Origin: a virus
Virus record (IMG/VR): IMGVR_UViG_3300032268_000293
Span: 1-64,000 of that record
DNA length: 64,000 bases
Direction: 5' to 3' (one strand)
The position numbers were made by a program, and so were the translations under genes. The notes below the pieces were generated by a model. The model had not been told where the DNA came from. It worked only from the letters and a program-made list of their open reading frames with translations, and ran no database searches. Below, in pieces: positions 5,694 to 26,941 of this stretch (position 1 is its first letter; each line of letters starts with the position of its first letter).

Positions 5694-5756
5694 AGTAATT
5701 ACCTTTCTGTGTTGTGTGTGAAAAATTCAAATTTGTGTGTTCATAATATATACACT

Positions 5757-5764
5757 TATTTATA
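5757..5764 (-). promoter_or_regulatory. T4-type late promoter TATAAATA
   Basis: Exact match ~65 nt upstream of the 5693 start. Confidence 0.6.
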
Positions 5765-5766
5765 AT

Positions 5767-6050
5767 GGTTGGTTATTCTGTTACGAGGAAACCAACCGAA
5801 ACCCTAGTCAGCTATTAAGCTGCCAATGCGTAACTTTCGTCATTTGCATTTACTTTATTTGCTTGATTTACGGTCATCGCCTACCGTGTTGCCGTCTCTA
5901 CTATCTAGCCCTGTCGAAACCAATGCATCCCCATCAAAAACGCACTACAAGGTTGCCCATTATTAAGAGGGGTGTAGTGCCCTTTTGGTGGAGATGGGGA
6001 GAGTCGAACTCCCGTCCAGAACTCCTTCGCTTTGAAGGGATTACAACAAT
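5767..6050 (-). ncRNA. ssrA: Circularly permuted (two-piece) tmRNA
   Basis: Acceptor piece ends GGAGTTCGACTCTCCCCATCTCCACCA (CCA at 5986). After a 53-nt spacer the coding piece starts GGGGATG (5932), pairing with CATCTCC including G3:U. Tag frame ANDESYALAA-stop at 5847-5815. Confidence 0.92.
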
Positions 6051-6051
6051 T

Positions 6052-6168
6052 CTAAAAATCTGAATTCTTTTTATCTTCTTCGAAATTACTCCAGTCGTAT
6101 GTTACCAGCTTATACACCCAGTAAACATGTAGAACAATAATCAGCAGAAAAAGAATTAGATTAGACAT
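6052..6168 (-). CDS. Small membrane protein, 38 aa (not in ORF track)
   Basis: MSNLILFLLIIVLHVYWVYKLVTYDWSNFEEDKKNSDF, immediately after the ahpD stop. Confidence 0.45.
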   Translation of the reverse strand: MSNLILFLLIIVLHVYWVYKLVTYDWSNFEEDKKNSDF

Positions 6169-6672
6169 TTAACTATTTAGCACTTTGGCGACGCTGTTCA
6201 TTACCGAAGCAATGCGTCCAATGTCACGAAGTTGTTCAACAGTATAACCTTCTTTCTTCAATGTTTCGTAGTGCGCTTTTACGCAAAAGTGACACTTGCC
6301 AACAATAGAAGCAGCAAGAGAATACGATTCGAATCTTGCTTTAGTTGTACCACCATGTGTAGTAATAGCATTCATACGAAGTTGAGCAGGCAATCCTTTT
6401 AGATTTGGATCATCAGCCATTTCAACATATGGATACCAAACATTATTTTGTGCCATAATACTCGCAGCACACATAGCAGCATTCGCTTCAGCTGGCGCAT
6501 CTGCCAGCAAAACAGAAAGAACTTTACCATTGCCAGTTGCCGCAAGAGCAGCAACTGCGCAACCATATGCCTCATCTGTTGGTAATGTGCTACGATTAAG
6601 GACTGCGTCAAGGTTTAGTTTCGTATCTTTCGCATACTCGGGAAGAGCTTCTTTAATCGCATCAATAAACAT
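6169..6672 (-). CDS. ahpD: Alkyl hydroperoxide reductase AhpD
   Basis: LPEYAKDTKLNL, MAQNNVWY, SIVGKCHFCVKAH (CxxC plus His). Confidence 0.92.
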   Translation of the reverse strand: MFIDAIKEALPEYAKDTKLNLDAVLNRSTLPTDEAYGCAVAALAATGNGKVLSVLLADAPAEANAAMCAASIMAQNNVWYPYVEMADDPNLKGLPAQLRMNAITTHGGTTKARFESYSLAASIVGKCHFCVKAHYETLKKEGYTVEQLRDIGRIASVMNSVAKVLNS

Positions 6673-7217
6673 TATAGAGTCTCTCCACCAACTTGACGAT
6701 TACATGCGCACTTCTCACCAGTTTGAAGAGCATCAAGGATACGTAAAGTTTCCTCAGGTGAACGACCTACGTTTAGATTATTTACTGTGACATGCTGAAT
6801 CACATTATCTGGATCAACAATAAATGTAGCACGAAGTGCTGCACCTGCAGGTGCATAGAATACACCCAGTTGATCGATCAAAGAAACGTCATAATCGCGA
6901 GAAGTATCAGCAAACTGAATGTGCTTCAAATTTTTTAAATCATCATGAGAAGTTTGCCATGCTACTTTACAGAACTCGTTATCTGTAGAACCAGTCAAAA
7001 GAACTGCGTCACGATCTGCGAAATCTTGGAACAACTTATCATAAGCCACAATCTCAGTAGGACACACAAATGTAAAGTCCTTTGGATAATATACGATTAC
7101 TTTCCACTTTCCTGGAAACGATTCTTCCGTAATTGTAAAAAATTGTTCACCTTTACTGCTAATAGGATTGACACCTGTAATAGCAAATCCTTCTAATTTA
7201 TCGCCAACTGTTCTCAT
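6672..7217 (-). CDS. ahpC: Peroxiredoxin AhpC
   Basis: YPKDFTFVCPTEI, RATFIVDPD, GRSPEETLRILDALQ. Confidence 0.95.
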   Translation of the reverse strand: MRTVGDKLEGFAITGVNPISSKGEQFFTITEESFPGKWKVIVYYPKDFTFVCPTEIVAYDKLFQDFADRDAVLLTGSTDNEFCKVAWQTSHDDLKNLKHIQFADTSRDYDVSLIDQLGVFYAPAGAALRATFIVDPDNVIQHVTVNNLNVGRSPEETLRILDALQTGEKCACNRQVGGETL

Positions 7218-7270
7218 TTAAATCTCCTGTGTTTCAAAAAAATAAAGAGGTTTTTCAACCCCATGTATAT

Positions 7271-7328: not shown

Positions 7329-7979
7329 TCAATAACCTCTTTCAATAAAGAATTGATTACGTAGGTCAATAAAACTGTTGATCCATTGATTTCGTTTCTC
7401 GTGAAATATCAATGGTGGTTCGTTATCAACAGACATTAGAATAACAATATTCGGAATAGAAATACCTGTTCGTTCTTCGAATGCTACTGCATAAGCAGAG
7501 CATTGCATAAAATAGTTATGAATGTCATCGCGACGCTTAACTCTACTTGATGTTTTAAAATCTATGACAGCAAGTTTACCTTCGTACTCTGCGATGCAGT
7601 CAACTGTTCCTGCGACTTGTAGGTGGTCAGAATAGAGTGGAGTTTCAAGGCAGTGTATGTTGTTGACTTTTGTGAGGACTGGTTTGAATGAAGACCAAGT
7701 CTCTGCATCAAATATATCTGGCTCAACATGCTCATTATTAAGATAGGATTCGCAGAGTGAGTGGATTCTTGTTCCACGATTTGCTGCTCTGGTTGATATG
7801 CGGTTGGCTTCTGCTTCTCCGACTCGTTTTCTCCAAGCGATGATTGCTTCTTTGCCAAGCAATCCTGTGACGCTTGTAACGGAGGGATAGCGTTTACCCG
7901 AAGGTGTCTCGTAGAGTCTACCTTCGGGAGTCTCAACACGTTGTATTCGCTGTATATCATGATGTATATGTGTAAACAT
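7329..7979 (-). CDS. PD-(D/E)XK exonuclease of T4-like phages
   Basis: YPSVTSV, RGTRIH, AGTVDCI, IDFKTS, YFMQCSAYA. Confidence 0.85.
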   Translation of the reverse strand: MFTHIHHDIQRIQRVETPEGRLYETPSGKRYPSVTSVTGLLGKEAIIAWRKRVGEAEANRISTRAANRGTRIHSLCESYLNNEHVEPDIFDAETWSSFKPVLTKVNNIHCLETPLYSDHLQVAGTVDCIAEYEGKLAVIDFKTSSRVKRRDDIHNYFMQCSAYAVAFEERTGISIPNIVILMSVDNEPPLIFHEKRNQWINSFIDLRNQFFIERGY

Positions 7980-8692
7980 TATTTCCAGTATTTAGAATAA
8001 TCTAATTTGTTCCAATATTCAGTATTGTTTCTGTTCAAAAAATTTTTAATAAGATACCAAGCCATTCCCGTATATCCCATCTTTTGAAATCTTCTACTAT
8101 CTTGCCCAAAATAATGATTCACTAATTTGAATTTCTTAACATCATATTTTTTTGATAAAAAGAAATCCTCACTAGTTCCATATTTTGCAGGGAATCCACC
8201 ATACTCCTCAAATTTATCTCTTCGTGTGAGCATGTATGCGCCAACAGCAAAAGGAACCCAGTATCCCATTATTCTGTTAATTCCATTAAAAATCATAAAT
8301 CCAATTTGTGCTCTAATATCACCATCATAACATTTGGCGTACAATCCAACCAAATCAAGATCATTATACTCCAACTCTCTAATAGTGTCAATTATAACTG
8401 TGTCTTTAAAAAATCTTACATCACTATCAATGAACAGAATATATGGTGTAGTTACAATTTTCGCACCATTATTTTTTGCGATAGAAACTGGTCCACCCCC
8501 AATAACTTCAACATTCAAATCACCTTTGCTCTCTTCAATAACATGTTTTGTGTTATCCGTAGAGGCATCTGCAATAATAATGCGAGTGTTACCAATATTC
8601 TGTTTCTTTAGGTGTTCGAGTAAATGAGAGATATAATTCTCTTCATTCTTACATGGAACAACTATTGTTATTTTATCCCTCAACAACATCAT
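7979..8692 (-). CDS. Glycosyltransferase family 2
   Basis: IVVPCKNEE, DASTD, LFIDSD (DxD), EDFFLS. Confidence 0.9.
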   Translation of the reverse strand: MMLLRDKITIVVPCKNEENYISHLLEHLKKQNIGNTRIIIADASTDNTKHVIEESKGDLNVEVIGGGPVSIAKNNGAKIVTTPYILFIDSDVRFFKDTVIIDTIRELEYNDLDLVGLYAKCYDGDIRAQIGFMIFNGINRIMGYWVPFAVGAYMLTRRDKFEEYGGFPAKYGTSEDFFLSKKYDVKKFKLVNHYFGQDSRRFQKMGYTGMAWYLIKNFLNRNNTEYWNKLDYSKYWK

Positions 8693-9440
8693 CTTTTTCC
8701 TTCGTCCAGGTAACTATTTCCCAACGACCATCGTAATGTTCAACAAGAGCAGTACAAGACTCAACCCAATCACCATCATTCATATAAATGATGCCATCTA
8801 TTTCTTTAATCTCTGCGTGGTGGATGTGCCCACAAACAACACCATCATATCCTCGTTTCTTGCAATACGCTGCAAGATTTTTCTCAAACTGAAACATAAA
8901 GTCAGACGCTTTCTTAACTCTATGTTTTAAATACTTAGATAATGACCAATAACCAAATCCTAGTTTACGACGAACCCAATTGAAGCGAGAGTTCCAATCA
9001 AGAACTAGGTCGTATAGTTTGTCGCCAAGAAACGCAAGCCATGGCGCAAGACGAGTAATCCCATCAAACAAATCACCATGTGTTACAAGATATCGTTTAC
9101 CATTAACACCCAAATGTTCTGTTTGATTTCGTATTTCAACTAAACCAAACGAAAACCCATAGGGAATCATGGGTCTTAGAAACTCGTCATGGTTTCCTGC
9201 TACGTAAATAACTTTGGTTCCTCTTTTTGCATGTCCAAGTATTCTACGAACAACATTAGTATGACTCTGTTTCCATCGCCATTTATTTTGCTGGATTTTC
9301 CAAGCATCAATTATGTCACCAATAAGATAGAGAGTTTCGCAAGTATTATGTTTTAGAAAATTATTAAGTTTATTTGCTTGACAATCACGAGTACCCAAAT
9401 GAACATCACTTATGAATATCGTTTTGTATGTTTTTTGCAT
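8673..9440 (-). CDS. PlcP-like (LpxH2-type) metallophosphoesterase
   Basis: SDVHLG, GDIID, GNHDEFLR, HGDLFD, WLAFLGD, YWSLS, CGHIH, NDGDWVESCTA. Confidence 0.8.
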   Translation of the reverse strand: MQKTYKTIFISDVHLGTRDCQANKLNNFLKHNTCETLYLIGDIIDAWKIQQNKWRWKQSHTNVVRRILGHAKRGTKVIYVAGNHDEFLRPMIPYGFSFGLVEIRNQTEHLGVNGKRYLVTHGDLFDGITRLAPWLAFLGDKLYDLVLDWNSRFNWVRRKLGFGYWSLSKYLKHRVKKASDFMFQFEKNLAAYCKKRGYDGVVCGHIHHAEIKEIDGIIYMNDGDWVESCTALVEHYDGRWEIVTWTKEKDDVVEG

Positions 9441-10208
9441 TTATTTGTTTTCTACATAATCTTCAAACTTTAATTTGGCCAAGATATAATCTTTGACTAG
9501 AGATGAACGAACGATATCATCTACTGTAAATTCGATTCGAGTAAATGCCTTCATGTGTTGGGCAATATCGAAGAATTTAAGAATACCACTGACATCGGTC
9601 TTTCTTTTATTTAGATCCGTTTGGCGGTAGTCACCACACCAGATAATTTTAGACATATGACCAACACGAGTCATAACTGTATCAATCTCATCATAGTTTA
9701 AGTTTTGCATCTCGTCAACGATGATGATTGCGTTATCAAACGACATACCACGAATGAATGATGTAGAGATAAACTGAATATGACCTTGTTCTTCTAGACG
9801 ATCCCATGCGTCTTTGCGATCAAATAACTGATGGCAAATTTGACGATATGGTTGTTCATAGATTTCCATTTTCTCACCAACATCTCCTGGAAGATGACCC
9901 ATCTCACGAGATTGAACTGCTGAACGAACAACAATAATCTTATTGAAAGGATTTGATTTATCTAACACTTCTTCAATTGCTTTATATAGAGCAATAAAAG
10001 TTTTACCTGTTCCAGCTACACCATGTAGTGCTACAAAGTAGTCACCACGTTTATATGCATCATAAAATAACTTTTGATTTTCAGTTAATGGCTGGAATGT
10101 TTTTAAATTATCTAATCTGAGTTTTAATTGATTAGAAGCAACTGGTTTTGTTTCGCGCTCGTCATGATGAATTTCTAATATTTTCTTTGCTGCTGAGGTA
10201 CGAGCCAT
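9441..10208 (-). CDS. phoH: PhoH-family ATPase
   Basis: GVAGTGKT, GHLPG, SFIRGMSFD, VDEMQN, GDYRQTD, DIVRS. Confidence 0.93.
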   Translation of the reverse strand: MARTSAAKKILEIHHDERETKPVASNQLKLRLDNLKTFQPLTENQKLFYDAYKRGDYFVALHGVAGTGKTFIALYKAIEEVLDKSNPFNKIIVVRSAVQSREMGHLPGDVGEKMEIYEQPYRQICHQLFDRKDAWDRLEEQGHIQFISTSFIRGMSFDNAIIIVDEMQNLNYDEIDTVMTRVGHMSKIIWCGDYRQTDLNKRKTDVSGILKFFDIAQHMKAFTRIEFTVDDIVRSSLVKDYILAKLKFEDYVENK

Positions 10209-20935: not shown

Positions 20936-21220
20936 TCATAGCATTCTTATTAAACCAATAGTATCAATTGTTGTTAGCAGGATGTAGTTAGCCAACATGC
21001 CAAATGATTTCCGAGTATAACTAGCCCAAGCATACATAGCACAACCAAAGATCCAGATAGGATATAAAACAAGTAAGGGAGGATTAGGGACTGTGAGTGC
21101 CATAGTGATCGAACACCCGATAGAGATCGCCCAAGCCAAAACCTCAACAACGAAACGTAATTTGTTACTTTTCCAATCATCTTTTATCCATGCAAATGTA
21201 TTTATCAAAAATCCTAACAT
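20936..21220 (-). CDS. Small multi-pass membrane protein
   Basis: Three hydrophobic helices. Confidence 0.65.
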   Translation of the reverse strand: MLGFLINTFAWIKDDWKSNKLRFVVEVLAWAISIGCSITMALTVPNPPLLVLYPIWIFGCAMYAWASYTRKSFGMLANYILLTTIDTIGLIRML

Positions 21221-22095
21221 ACTTCCACCACTTTTAGTTCAAAGGTATTAGAGATACCTTCGTAACCGAGATATCCACGAGGATTACACACAACACGTGT
21301 GTTCCCGATCATATAATCATATCGCTCATGCGTATGACCATGTGTCCACAATTTAATTTGGGGGTGATCTAAAATATATTCTACATAGTCGTTGTGATAA
21401 CCACCATTCATGTACTCATCGTCAGAGTAACGAGGATGCATAGATTGCCTTGATGGGGTGTGATGTCCAACAACAACTACTTTATCGTTTTCAGAAACAA
21501 TGTGTTTGATGTAATCAAAACATTTTTTGTTTTCTTCAACAGCATCTTCAGGACAAAACGTCGCGACACGTGTTTTGAATGATGGGATTTGACGCCCATC
21601 TTCCGTAACCTCAAATGTTTTGTAACTTACCTCACGATTGCTGTTTTTTACACAGTTAAAATCGTTCATCATACTTTTGATGTGATACATTGTCATTGGA
21701 TCTTCATTGTTCATGTTAGTCCACAATGTACCACCAACAAATGTAATGTCATCAATCTTCAAAAGTTCTTTATCAAGAACATGAACATTCGTCAAGTATT
21801 TGAATTTGTGCTTCAACGAAGACAACGTATATCTGAAGTCGCCATGGTAATGTTCATGATTACCAGCTACATAGATAACATGTGGAAACTCAGAAGCGCA
21901 ATCCTGAAAGAATCTATGATACATGTTCGATTTGTTTCTTGCGAAACCAGTCTCGACTTGTTGTTCGTTCCATTCATCAAGATCGTTCTCAACTAGAATG
22001 TCACCAGAGAGGATGAGTACATCAACATCTCCAGGATTCTTTAGGATAAGTGGTCCGAACTCTAAATGAACATCGGAACATACTGCAATTTTCAT
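21214..22095 (-). CDS. Calcineurin-like metallophosphoesterase
   Basis: SDVHLEF, LSGDI, GNHEHY, GHH, HGHTH, CNPRGY. Confidence 0.9.
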   Translation of the reverse strand: MKIAVCSDVHLEFGPLILKNPGDVDVLILSGDILVENDLDEWNEQQVETGFARNKSNMYHRFFQDCASEFPHVIYVAGNHEHYHGDFRYTLSSLKHKFKYLTNVHVLDKELLKIDDITFVGGTLWTNMNNEDPMTMYHIKSMMNDFNCVKNSNREVSYKTFEVTEDGRQIPSFKTRVATFCPEDAVEENKKCFDYIKHIVSENDKVVVVGHHTPSRQSMHPRYSDDEYMNGGYHNDYVEYILDHPQIKLWTHGHTHERYDYMIGNTRVVCNPRGYLGYEGISNTFELKVVEVC

Positions 22096-26093: not shown

Positions 26094-26241
26094 CTTCTTC
26101 CTCCTCAAAGTCTTCCTCTTCATATATATCACCACCACAGAATGGGCAATATACAACATCGGTTGACTGAAGATCGTCTACCTTAAATGAGATTTTTCCA
26201 TGCGATCCGCATGATTCACAATCAAAATATTTAACTGCCAT
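26086..26241 (-). CDS. Small zinc-ribbon protein, 51 aa (not in ORF track)
   Basis: MAVKYFDCESCG...VYCPFCGG plus acidic tail. Confidence 0.65.
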   Translation of the reverse strand: MAVKYFDCESCGSHGKISFKVDDLQSTDVVYCPFCGGDIYEEEDFEEEEDA

Positions 26242-26941
26242 CTCTTACCTTCGTTAATCCGAGTTTATTAAAAACCTTAAACCACATCCAACCAATATCA
26301 AACTCTACTGGTTTTCTACTTAATTTTGGGTTTGCTGGATCACCATGATGGTTATTGTGTAATTCTTCACCACCTATGATAATTCCCCACGGAATTATGT
26401 TAGTCGATTTTTCTTTGGTGTCATAATTTCTATAACCATAATAATGTCCCATACCATTTATAACACCTGCTGCCCAGAATGGAATCCATACCATTTGAAC
26501 TGCCCAGAACCAAATTCCCCACCAACCGAACAGAATTAAACTAATTACCAACATTAAAACAATTCCAGCATATGGAAATTTTGAATAAACATTTCTTTCC
26601 ATCCAGTCATCTGGAGTTCCAACACCATACTTCTGAATCATTTCTTTATCTCTTGCGGATTGAACATAGCAAGAAACCCCAGCGAATAAAACAAACCAGA
26701 TACCCTCATTGTGAGGACTATGAGGATCGCCCTCTTTGTCCGAGTTCTGATGATGTTTACGATGTATCGCAACCCATTCTTTTGTTACCATGCCAGTTGT
26801 TAACCACAACCAAAAGCGCATGAAATGGGATAGAACTGGATCAAACTCTATACCTCTATGTGTTTGTCCTCTGTGTAAATACAGTGTAACACAAACAATG
26901 GTAATGTGTGTCATTACCAACAGATAAATTATTTCAATCAT
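26231..26941 (-). CDS. Delta-9-type fatty acid desaturase
   Basis: His boxes HRGQTH, HRKHH, HNNHH; GDPHSP; EFDIGW. Confidence 0.92.
   Translation of the reverse strand: MIEIIYLLVMTHITIVCVTLYLHRGQTHRGIEFDPVLSHFMRFWLWLTTGMVTKEWVAIHRKHHQNSDKEGDPHSPHNEGIWFVLFAGVSCYVQSARDKEMIQKYGVGTPDDWMERNVYSKFPYAGIVLMLVISLILFGWWGIWFWAVQMVWIPFWAAGVINGMGHYYGYRNYDTKEKSTNIIPWGIIIGGEELHNNHHGDPANPKLSRKPVEFDIGWMWFKVFNKLGLTKVRDGS

Follow-up and report, generated by a model that had tools for sequence, protein, structure and literature searches.

Does this phage carry a pathway of its own for exchanging host phospholipid for phosphorus-free glycolipid? The question is raised by a locus in IMG/VR record IMGVR_UViG_3300032268_000293, a virus fragment of 79.8 kb with an estimated completeness of 49%, whose relatives are Kyanoviridae-like (T4-like). 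Positions 1 to 64,000 of this record were analysed and are referred to as the window. An earlier note, made from the letters of the window, had described three abutting genes for a PhoH-like protein, a phosphoesterase and a family 2 glycosyltransferase (GT2), had read the phosphoesterase as PlcP-like, and had proposed a phage lipid-remodelling cassette for phosphate scavenging. All three open reading frames (ORFs) lie on the minus strand as described (Table 1), and the translation of the middle gene contains the four motifs that had been pointed out, GNHD (residues 82–85), WLAFLGD, YWSLS and NDGDWVESCTA. Our analysis indicates that the phosphoesterase and GT2 genes are a real phage gene pair, encoding a predicted PlcP-type phospholipase C and a phage-typical GT2 in the place of the glycosyltransferase Agt. 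The best explanation, in which we place moderate confidence, is that this module converts phospholipid to diacylglycerol and diacylglycerol to glycolipid during infection. This reading rests on family membership, conserved catalytic residues, fold, gene linkage, the alternation with Agt and purifying selection.

A different identity is given to the phosphoesterase by its Joint Genome Institute (JGI) and GenBank annotations, both of which name LpxH. The GenBank label of the Mosig and S-SRM01 genes is likewise UDP-2,3-diacylglucosamine hydrolase, and marine and Lake Baikal surveys place viral lpxH under lipopolysaccharide (LPS) biosynthesis (PMC10653327, PMC9611531). An LpxH-type hydrolase would allow the phage to boost or perturb lipid A synthesis, and the GT2 would modify LPS. 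The window protein is a member of the same superfamily (Pfam Metallophos, E 7e-12, above cut-off), but it scores only 48–50 bits against the LpxH equivalog NF003743, for which the cut-off is 134, and 36.7 bits against TIGR01854, for which it is 190. NF003743 scores are bimodal across 41 Burkholderiales genomes, with LpxH at 226–326 bits and a second paralog at 35–55 bits, and the phage protein falls in the second class. (This Burkholderiales tally and the alphaproteobacterial tally given below each take in one unpublished genome, G431 and G245, respectively; neither genome contributed sequence, and our conclusions do not rest on them.)

The residues that define PlcP, also called LpxH2, were taken from PMC3087551 and from our own alignment. 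In the alignment, the four motifs are common to the characterised PlcPs of Pseudomonas aeruginosa and Sinorhizobium meliloti, whereas LpxH has GNRDF, HGHTHRP and LGDWYE at the same places. Signatures confined to PlcP are GNHD, WxWxQxH, WLAxLGD, YWSLSxYLK, CGHIHH and NDGDWVESCTAL. The five metal-binding blocks are all present (D12/H14, G41-D42, G82-N83-H84-D85, H121 and G204-H205-x-H207) and are invariant or nearly so in the family. Block 3 is diagnostic, as it reads GNH(D/E) in LpxH2 and GNR in LpxH (PMC3087551). The same paper cites the inability of P. aeruginosa lpxH2 to replace E. coli lpxH.

Sequence identity and phylogeny point in the same direction. The window protein shares 53% identity with the P. 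aeruginosa PA3219 ortholog (E 8e-93) and 45% with S. meliloti LpxH2/PlcP, the identity between these two being 47%; with LpxH it shares only 22–27%, and the solved LpxH chains are distant (E 6e-5 when searched by single sequence, 3e-11 by family profile). Two maximum-likelihood IQ-TREE runs of 146 and 135 rows, including 14 LpxH rows and excluding one locus (L213), both separated LpxH from PlcP with a Shimodaira–Hasegawa-like approximate likelihood ratio test (SH-aLRT) support of 100 and a branch length of 3.6–5.0. In both trees the window protein grouped with the PA3219 and S. meliloti orthologs, nested in a viral clade (support 98–99) within the PlcP side.

The two named anchors are PLSDB records, a 270-residue P. 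aeruginosa gene product and a 281-residue S. meliloti one, and both lengths agree with the LpxH2 proteins of PMC3087551. The P. aeruginosa anchor overlaps by 4 nt the family-1 glycosyltransferase gene that comes after it; this corresponds to PA3219-PA3218 (plcP-agt1), an arrangement that PMC8528852 validated. The plasmid labels of such records are doubtful: a 3.7-Mb S. meliloti “pSymB” (L208, CP090106.1) carries the chromosomal plcP region, as do P. aeruginosa “plasmids” of 96–167 kb (L209, NZ_CP137508.1).

LpxH is the only solved relative of the window protein. An AlphaFold (AF2) model with a predicted local distance difference test score (pLDDT) of 83.6 overall and 52–75 in the cap aligns best in the PDB with LpxH 5b49, at Z 19.3 across 202 residues that take in the helical cap, while the next phosphoesterases reach Z values of at most 14.8 over about 160 residues without the cap. 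The model therefore has an LpxH-type helical cap, an element that in LpxH holds acyl chains. No transmembrane segment was found in the protein. The two are paralogous clades with a common phosphoesterase core and lipid-binding cap, and they differ in signature (GNRD and HGHTHRP in LpxH, GNHD and CGHIHH in PlcP) and in context, as relatives of the phage gene lie in plcP-agt operons, a lipid-swap setting, and not among lipid A genes. Taken together, these data argue that the middle gene encodes a PlcP/LpxH2-type enzyme and not LpxH, as the earlier note had proposed. The LpxH alternative is largely refuted by the sequence, and we regard it as highly improbable. Virus surveys thus misfile this gene as lpxH, and if phages run the PlcP pathway themselves, the viral “lpxH” counts of metagenome surveys stand under the wrong pathway, LPS synthesis.

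Cellular homologs of the phage plcP are 40–60% identical to it and are present in 146 of 401 sampled Alphaproteobacteria. They are usually followed immediately downstream by an Agt1 ortholog (45–53% identity), so that the usual partner is a GT4 enzyme, as had been stated in advance. The occurrence of plcP beside agt or genes for other enzymes of phosphorus-free lipid synthesis (Pgt, BtaAB, OlsB) is the published picture (PMC4796936, PMC9239053). In a Sphingomonadales metagenome-assembled genome (MAG; L025:2043-4271), PlcP and an Agt-type GT4 form one continuous ORF of 742 residues, a natural fusion that ties both activities together. In two gammaproteobacterial MAGs the neighbour of plcP encodes an OlsB-type acyltransferase.

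Viral relatives of plcP were found in at least 582 IMG/VR stretches, and the loci of the best 80 of these (83–95% identity, on contigs of a few kb to 367 kb) were analysed. Where at least 1 kb was available downstream (63 loci), the gene following plcP encoded an Agt-like GT4 in 32 loci, a GT2 in 29 and neither in 2; no locus had both. The viral GT4 is 39.5% identical to Agt1. In the tree, GT4 and GT2 labels interleave among plcP genes that are more than 90% identical, with most branches weakly supported. Phage plcP genes that are almost identical are thus followed by one or the other of GT4 and GT2, as mutually exclusive choices.

When loci were centred on GT2 instead, 69 of 72 close viral loci had plcP as the immediate upstream neighbour, and 2 more had it about 700 nt away. 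More distant loci were gathered using a 45%-identical GT2 family member as query. In all 73 of those with sufficient room, whose GT2 proteins are 31–71% identical, a plcP homolog (34–81% identity) was adjacent and on the same strand, although the order was plcP-GT2 in 26 and GT2-plcP in 47. In the tree, the majority of these plcP genes fall into a second viral clade, and the pairing persists down to GT2 identities of 31–40%. Linkage that outlasts such divergence and a change in gene order is strong evidence that both enzymes serve one pathway. Both genes are also under strong purifying selection. Between the window plcP and its relatives, the nonsynonymous divergence (dN) is 0.03–0.06, synonymous sites are saturated and the ratio of nonsynonymous to synonymous divergence (omega) is approximately 0.02–0.04; for GT2, omega is at most 0.09.

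Several further loci were seen in these searches. MAGs labelled Haliscomenobacter, Polynucleobacter and Gammaproteobacteria (L005-L008, L121) carry phage-type plcP-GT2 or plcP-GT4 pairs at 80–87% identity, in two copies in one MAG; as the labels span unrelated phyla, these are probably misbinned phage contigs. In MT836169, a “Bacteriophage sp.” contig from a human faecal sample, a plcP homolog (43% identity) is followed by a gene for a PF13528 glycosyltransferase (E 4e-22; L003:3781-5705), a putative third partner type on a gut-derived viral contig. The cultured Pelagibacter phage Mosig EXVC030M has a plcP homolog (51% identity) that adjoins, in divergent orientation, a gene for a pstS-like phosphate-binding protein (L001:3894-5729) and has no glycosyltransferase gene after it.

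The GT2 itself matches PF00535 at 69.6 bits (cut-off 23.3, E 4e-19) and PF13506 (GT21) at 29.4 bits (cut-off 21.7), the latter overlapped by the stronger generic PF00535 match. Its family consists of stand-alone proteins of about 235 residues (48 clusters at E ≤1e-30, 865 at E ≤1e-10) in which D42, D89-S-D91, E175-D176 and R200-R201 are conserved. The AF2 model (pLDDT 96) has a GT-A fold, and the protein lacks transmembrane segments and ends in an aromatic, basic C-terminus. The idea that it might be Agt, a GT4 enzyme of GT-B fold with Pfam Glycos_transf_1 or Glyco_transf_4 domains, was rejected on the PF00535 match, the GT-A fold and a BLASTP comparison with viral and cellular GT4 proteins (E 5.3). 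We also asked whether a 341-residue protein with a GT2-type N-terminal match (P0353) might be a fusion of PlcP and GT2, and it is not. The anomeric configuration is inverted by GT2 enzymes and retained by GT4 enzymes (CAZy), so the product would be expected to have an anomeric linkage unlike that of Agt glycolipids, probably the opposite one.

These features are compatible with the following sequence of events. PlcP, with its metallophosphoesterase core of the manganese type and LpxH-like lipid-binding cap, would work on the cytoplasmic side of the host inner membrane, splitting glycerophospholipid into diacylglycerol and a phosphorylated head group. The GT2, a probably translationally coupled, soluble or peripheral inverting GT-A enzyme with intact catalytic aspartates, would then transfer a sugar from a nucleotide sugar to diacylglycerol, keeping the bilayer intact with phosphorus-free glycolipid and taking the role that belongs to the retaining GT4 Agt in bacteria and, among the related phages, in half. 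The likely benefit would be phosphorus, freed from host lipid for phage nucleotide synthesis, with an altered cell surface as a possible side effect. Such a supply benefit is plausible. We infer the substrates, product, timing and benefit of the module.

Several observations weigh against this conversion of phospholipid to glycolipid, some concerning the glycosyltransferase and others the supply of phosphorus. Fold searches with the GT2 model (Foldseek, VIA-align) returned only generic GT-A neighbours, from which no acceptor can be read: TarS (Z 20.6) and PcManGT (Z 20.4) lead a group that also includes WrtF and SpsA, all at Z 19–21. The nearest curated families are non-lipid or non-diacylglycerol enzymes, and all score below cut-off. 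The closest, TIGR04283 (arsenosugar-associated GT2), gives 58 bits against a cut-off of 182, although by E-value it matches 84 of 85 GT2 family members (best E 1.7e-36); the NCBIfam models HpnB and CruG, whose lipid acceptors are a hopanoid and a carotenoid, respectively, are also weakly matched. With a generic fold and family matches below cut-off, the acceptor is read only from gene context. ESM Atlas offered no more than leads, namely a cluster from Acidobacteriota and the label “diaponeurosporenoate glycosyltransferase”. In addition, the cellular PlcP loci examined contained no member of this GT2 family next to plcP, and a search of 400 genomes from Burkholderiales, the order to which the host probably belongs, turned one up solely on a misbinned phage contig. 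In support of the pairing, a full-length family member is present in 19 of 401 sampled Acidobacteriota (279–303 bits; L338-L356), directly preceded in 9 of the 19 by a gene for an LpxH2-side phosphoesterase (268–289 residues, 24–30% identity) and in the other 10 by unannotated ORFs. The acidobacterial phosphoesterases are long-branched in the tree, which makes their placement unsure.

One alternative is that PlcP is a real phospholipase C but that the GT2 uses another acceptor, for instance polyprenyl phosphate, a sugar of LPS or capsule, or a lipid resembling hopanoids or carotenoids, and serves mainly to change the cell surface, for example in superinfection exclusion. PHROG matches to GtrB-like O-antigen conversion enzymes (E 2e-6) would fit this proposal, as would the HpnB, CruG and TIGR04283 matches and the fold neighbours, which are wall-teichoic-acid, N-glycan and polysaccharide GT2s. 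However, the PHROG matches cover only the N-terminal 50 residues, and all of these matches are below family cut-offs or reflect generic GT-A similarity. Unlike GtrB, ArnC and DPMS, the GT2 is without transmembrane helices. It occupies the exact slot of Agt, is never found together with Agt, and almost never occurs without plcP, a pattern difficult to account for if the GT2 substrate had nothing to do with the PlcP product. We therefore consider a different acceptor unlikely.

The remaining points concern phosphorus. Three weak Pho box matches were found in the window, compared with 8.3 expected by chance, and none lies upstream of the cassette; among the 80 related plcP loci, only 3 have a Pho box within 250 nt upstream at up to 3 mismatches, and these are weak (one weak site in L112). 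No Pho box lies near the cassette, and we see no link between its expression and phosphate stress. The 79.8-kb, 49%-complete record yielded neither pstS nor a GT4, and the sequencing runs that contain the stretch include no RNA run. The chemistry could accordingly be as proposed while the benefit lies elsewhere, in stabilisation of the infected cell, lysis timing or receptor display. Consistent with this are the missing Pho box and pstS, the position of the genes in a constitutive-looking run of early or middle genes, the presence of a fatty-acid desaturase gene in the same genome, and the finding that bacterial lipid remodelling alters phage attachment and membrane proteins (PMC9938194, PMC9804370). 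On the other hand, the Mosig plcP adjoins pstS, and bacterial PlcP is a Pho-regulon enzyme that is enriched in low-phosphate waters (PMC4796936). A benefit unrelated to phosphorus appears to us somewhat less probable again than a different acceptor.

The phoH gene had been counted as part of the cassette, and this did not hold. Its product is a clear PF02562 member (153.8 bits, cut-off 27), but only 25 of 79 GT2-centred loci have phoH at a distance of up to 3 kb, and 8 of 80 plcP-centred loci at up to 6 kb, and it never abuts as it does here. It is a variable neighbour, a bystander that is not part of the conserved module.

How does the phage module compare with known systems? In the bacterial PlcP-Agt pathway (S. 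meliloti SMc00171, P. aeruginosa PA3219-PA3218, Phaeobacter MED193, SAR11 HTCC7211, M. trichosporium OB3b), PlcP is 45–53% identical to the phage protein and has the same motifs, plcP immediately precedes the glycosyltransferase gene in the same orientation, and the partner is of the canonical Agt type, which is also present in about half of the close relatives among phages. The window differs in that the genes are virus-borne, in that no Pho box was found, and in that the partner is a 237-residue inverting GT2 unrelated to Agt. Inverting GT-A enzymes with diacylglycerol as acceptor are known in Pgt (GT21, M. loti and A. tumefaciens) and in cyanobacterial MgdA, which belongs to the GT2 family; the window GT2 is likewise GT-A and matches PF13506 above cut-off, under a stronger overlapping match to the generic GT2 model, whereas Pgt and MgdA are longer and membrane-embedded. 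Bacterial plcP has been seen to adjoin genes for non-GT4 glycosyltransferases, including Pgt (PMC4796936). The phosphate-stress genes of cyanophages and pelagiphages (pstS, phoA, phoH) are similar in being host-derived, in T4-like aquatic phages and concerned with phosphorus economy. Unlike these, plcP would act on internal lipid phosphorus and not on uptake, and control by PhoB is not supported here.

A bolder form of the proposal is that GT2 and PlcP constitute a distinct two-enzyme pathway, spread mainly by phages in at least two viral PlcP clades with a distant counterpart in Acidobacteriota. Such a pathway might make a glycolipid with the other anomeric linkage and perhaps another sugar, so that lake cells would carry a virus-specified lipid and lipid phosphorus would pass into virions at ecosystem scale. 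We put this forward tentatively, with somewhat less than even confidence. Lipid renovation by PlcP is a major phosphorus-saving route of aquatic bacteria. If phages run the pathway themselves, membrane phospholipid would be a phosphorus store that can be tapped for viral DNA synthesis, and infected cells may carry virus-specified glycolipids, with possible use as biomarkers and with changed receptors and antimicrobial sensitivity. The GT2 partner would then add an uncharacterised family to the known diacylglycerol glycosyltransferases. In the literature collection searched, we found no paper that treats plcP as a phage or auxiliary metabolic gene, in agreement with the earlier note, whose author knew of no characterised phage version.

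The features of the locus are listed in Table 1.

Table 1. Coordinates of the plcP-GT2 module and of other features in the window.
Feature	Position	Strand	Description
plcP	8673..9440	(-)	255 aa; PlcP/LpxH2-type Mn-metallophosphoesterase, predicted phospholipase C
GT2	7979..8692	(-)	237 aa; short stand-alone glycosyltransferase, predicted diacylglycerol glycosyltransferase, partner of plcP
plcP end/GT2 start overlap	8673..8692	(-)	20 nt, out of frame; GT2 ATG inside the end of plcP
phoH-like ATPase gene	9441..10208	(-)	255 aa; PF02562 E 5e-45, phrog_170 E 3.5e-82
PD-(D/E)XK exonuclease gene	7329..7979	(-)	phrog_298 E 6e-73; last gene of the run
Terminator-like hairpin and T run	7247..7262	(-)	3′ of the exonuclease gene; consensus scan only
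AhpD-AhpC pair	6169..7217	(-)	Alkylhydroperoxidase/peroxiredoxin; just downstream of the cassette
Two-piece (permuted) tmRNA	5741..6097	(-)	Rfam beta_tmRNA RF01850 175 bits, tmRNA_permuted 154 bits
Second metallophosphoesterase gene	21214..22095	(-)	293 aa; calcineurin-like, PF00149 E 3e-10, unrelated to plcP
Fatty-acid desaturase gene	26231..26941	(-)	PF00487 E 5e-16

The cassette is part of an uninterrupted minus-strand run of phoH, the phosphoesterase gene, GT2 and an exonuclease gene, followed by ahpC and ahpD. The first base of plcP is the base directly after the phoH stop codon, the overlap between plcP and GT2 is a probable basis for translational coupling, and the exonuclease ATG overlaps the GT2 stop codon (TAATG). 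In relatives, PlcP ends in a variable, basic, low-complexity tail of approximately 20–45 residues; this is absent from the window protein and appears from the sequence to have been lost to the overlap with GT2. An exonuclease gene follows GT2 in 10 of 79 GT2-centred loci of relatives. Scans of the window for sigma-70 promoters and terminators performed no better than on shuffled sequence, and no T4 late promoter (TATAAATA) was found near the cassette.

In 9 of the 80 related viral loci, homologs of the AhpD-AhpC pair are found no more than 6 kb from plcP, and the region therefore has the character of a shifting island of host-like genes. The desaturase gene is a second membrane-lipid gene of the same phage, and the second phosphoesterase gene is located among replication and repair genes. 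Some of the sequencing runs that contain part of the stretch are freshwater metagenomes, and the habitat of the phage is probably fresh water. The phage transfer-messenger RNA (tmRNA), for which ARAGORN gives the tag ANDESYALAA, matches the betaproteobacterial family, which suggests that the host is a betaproteobacterium.

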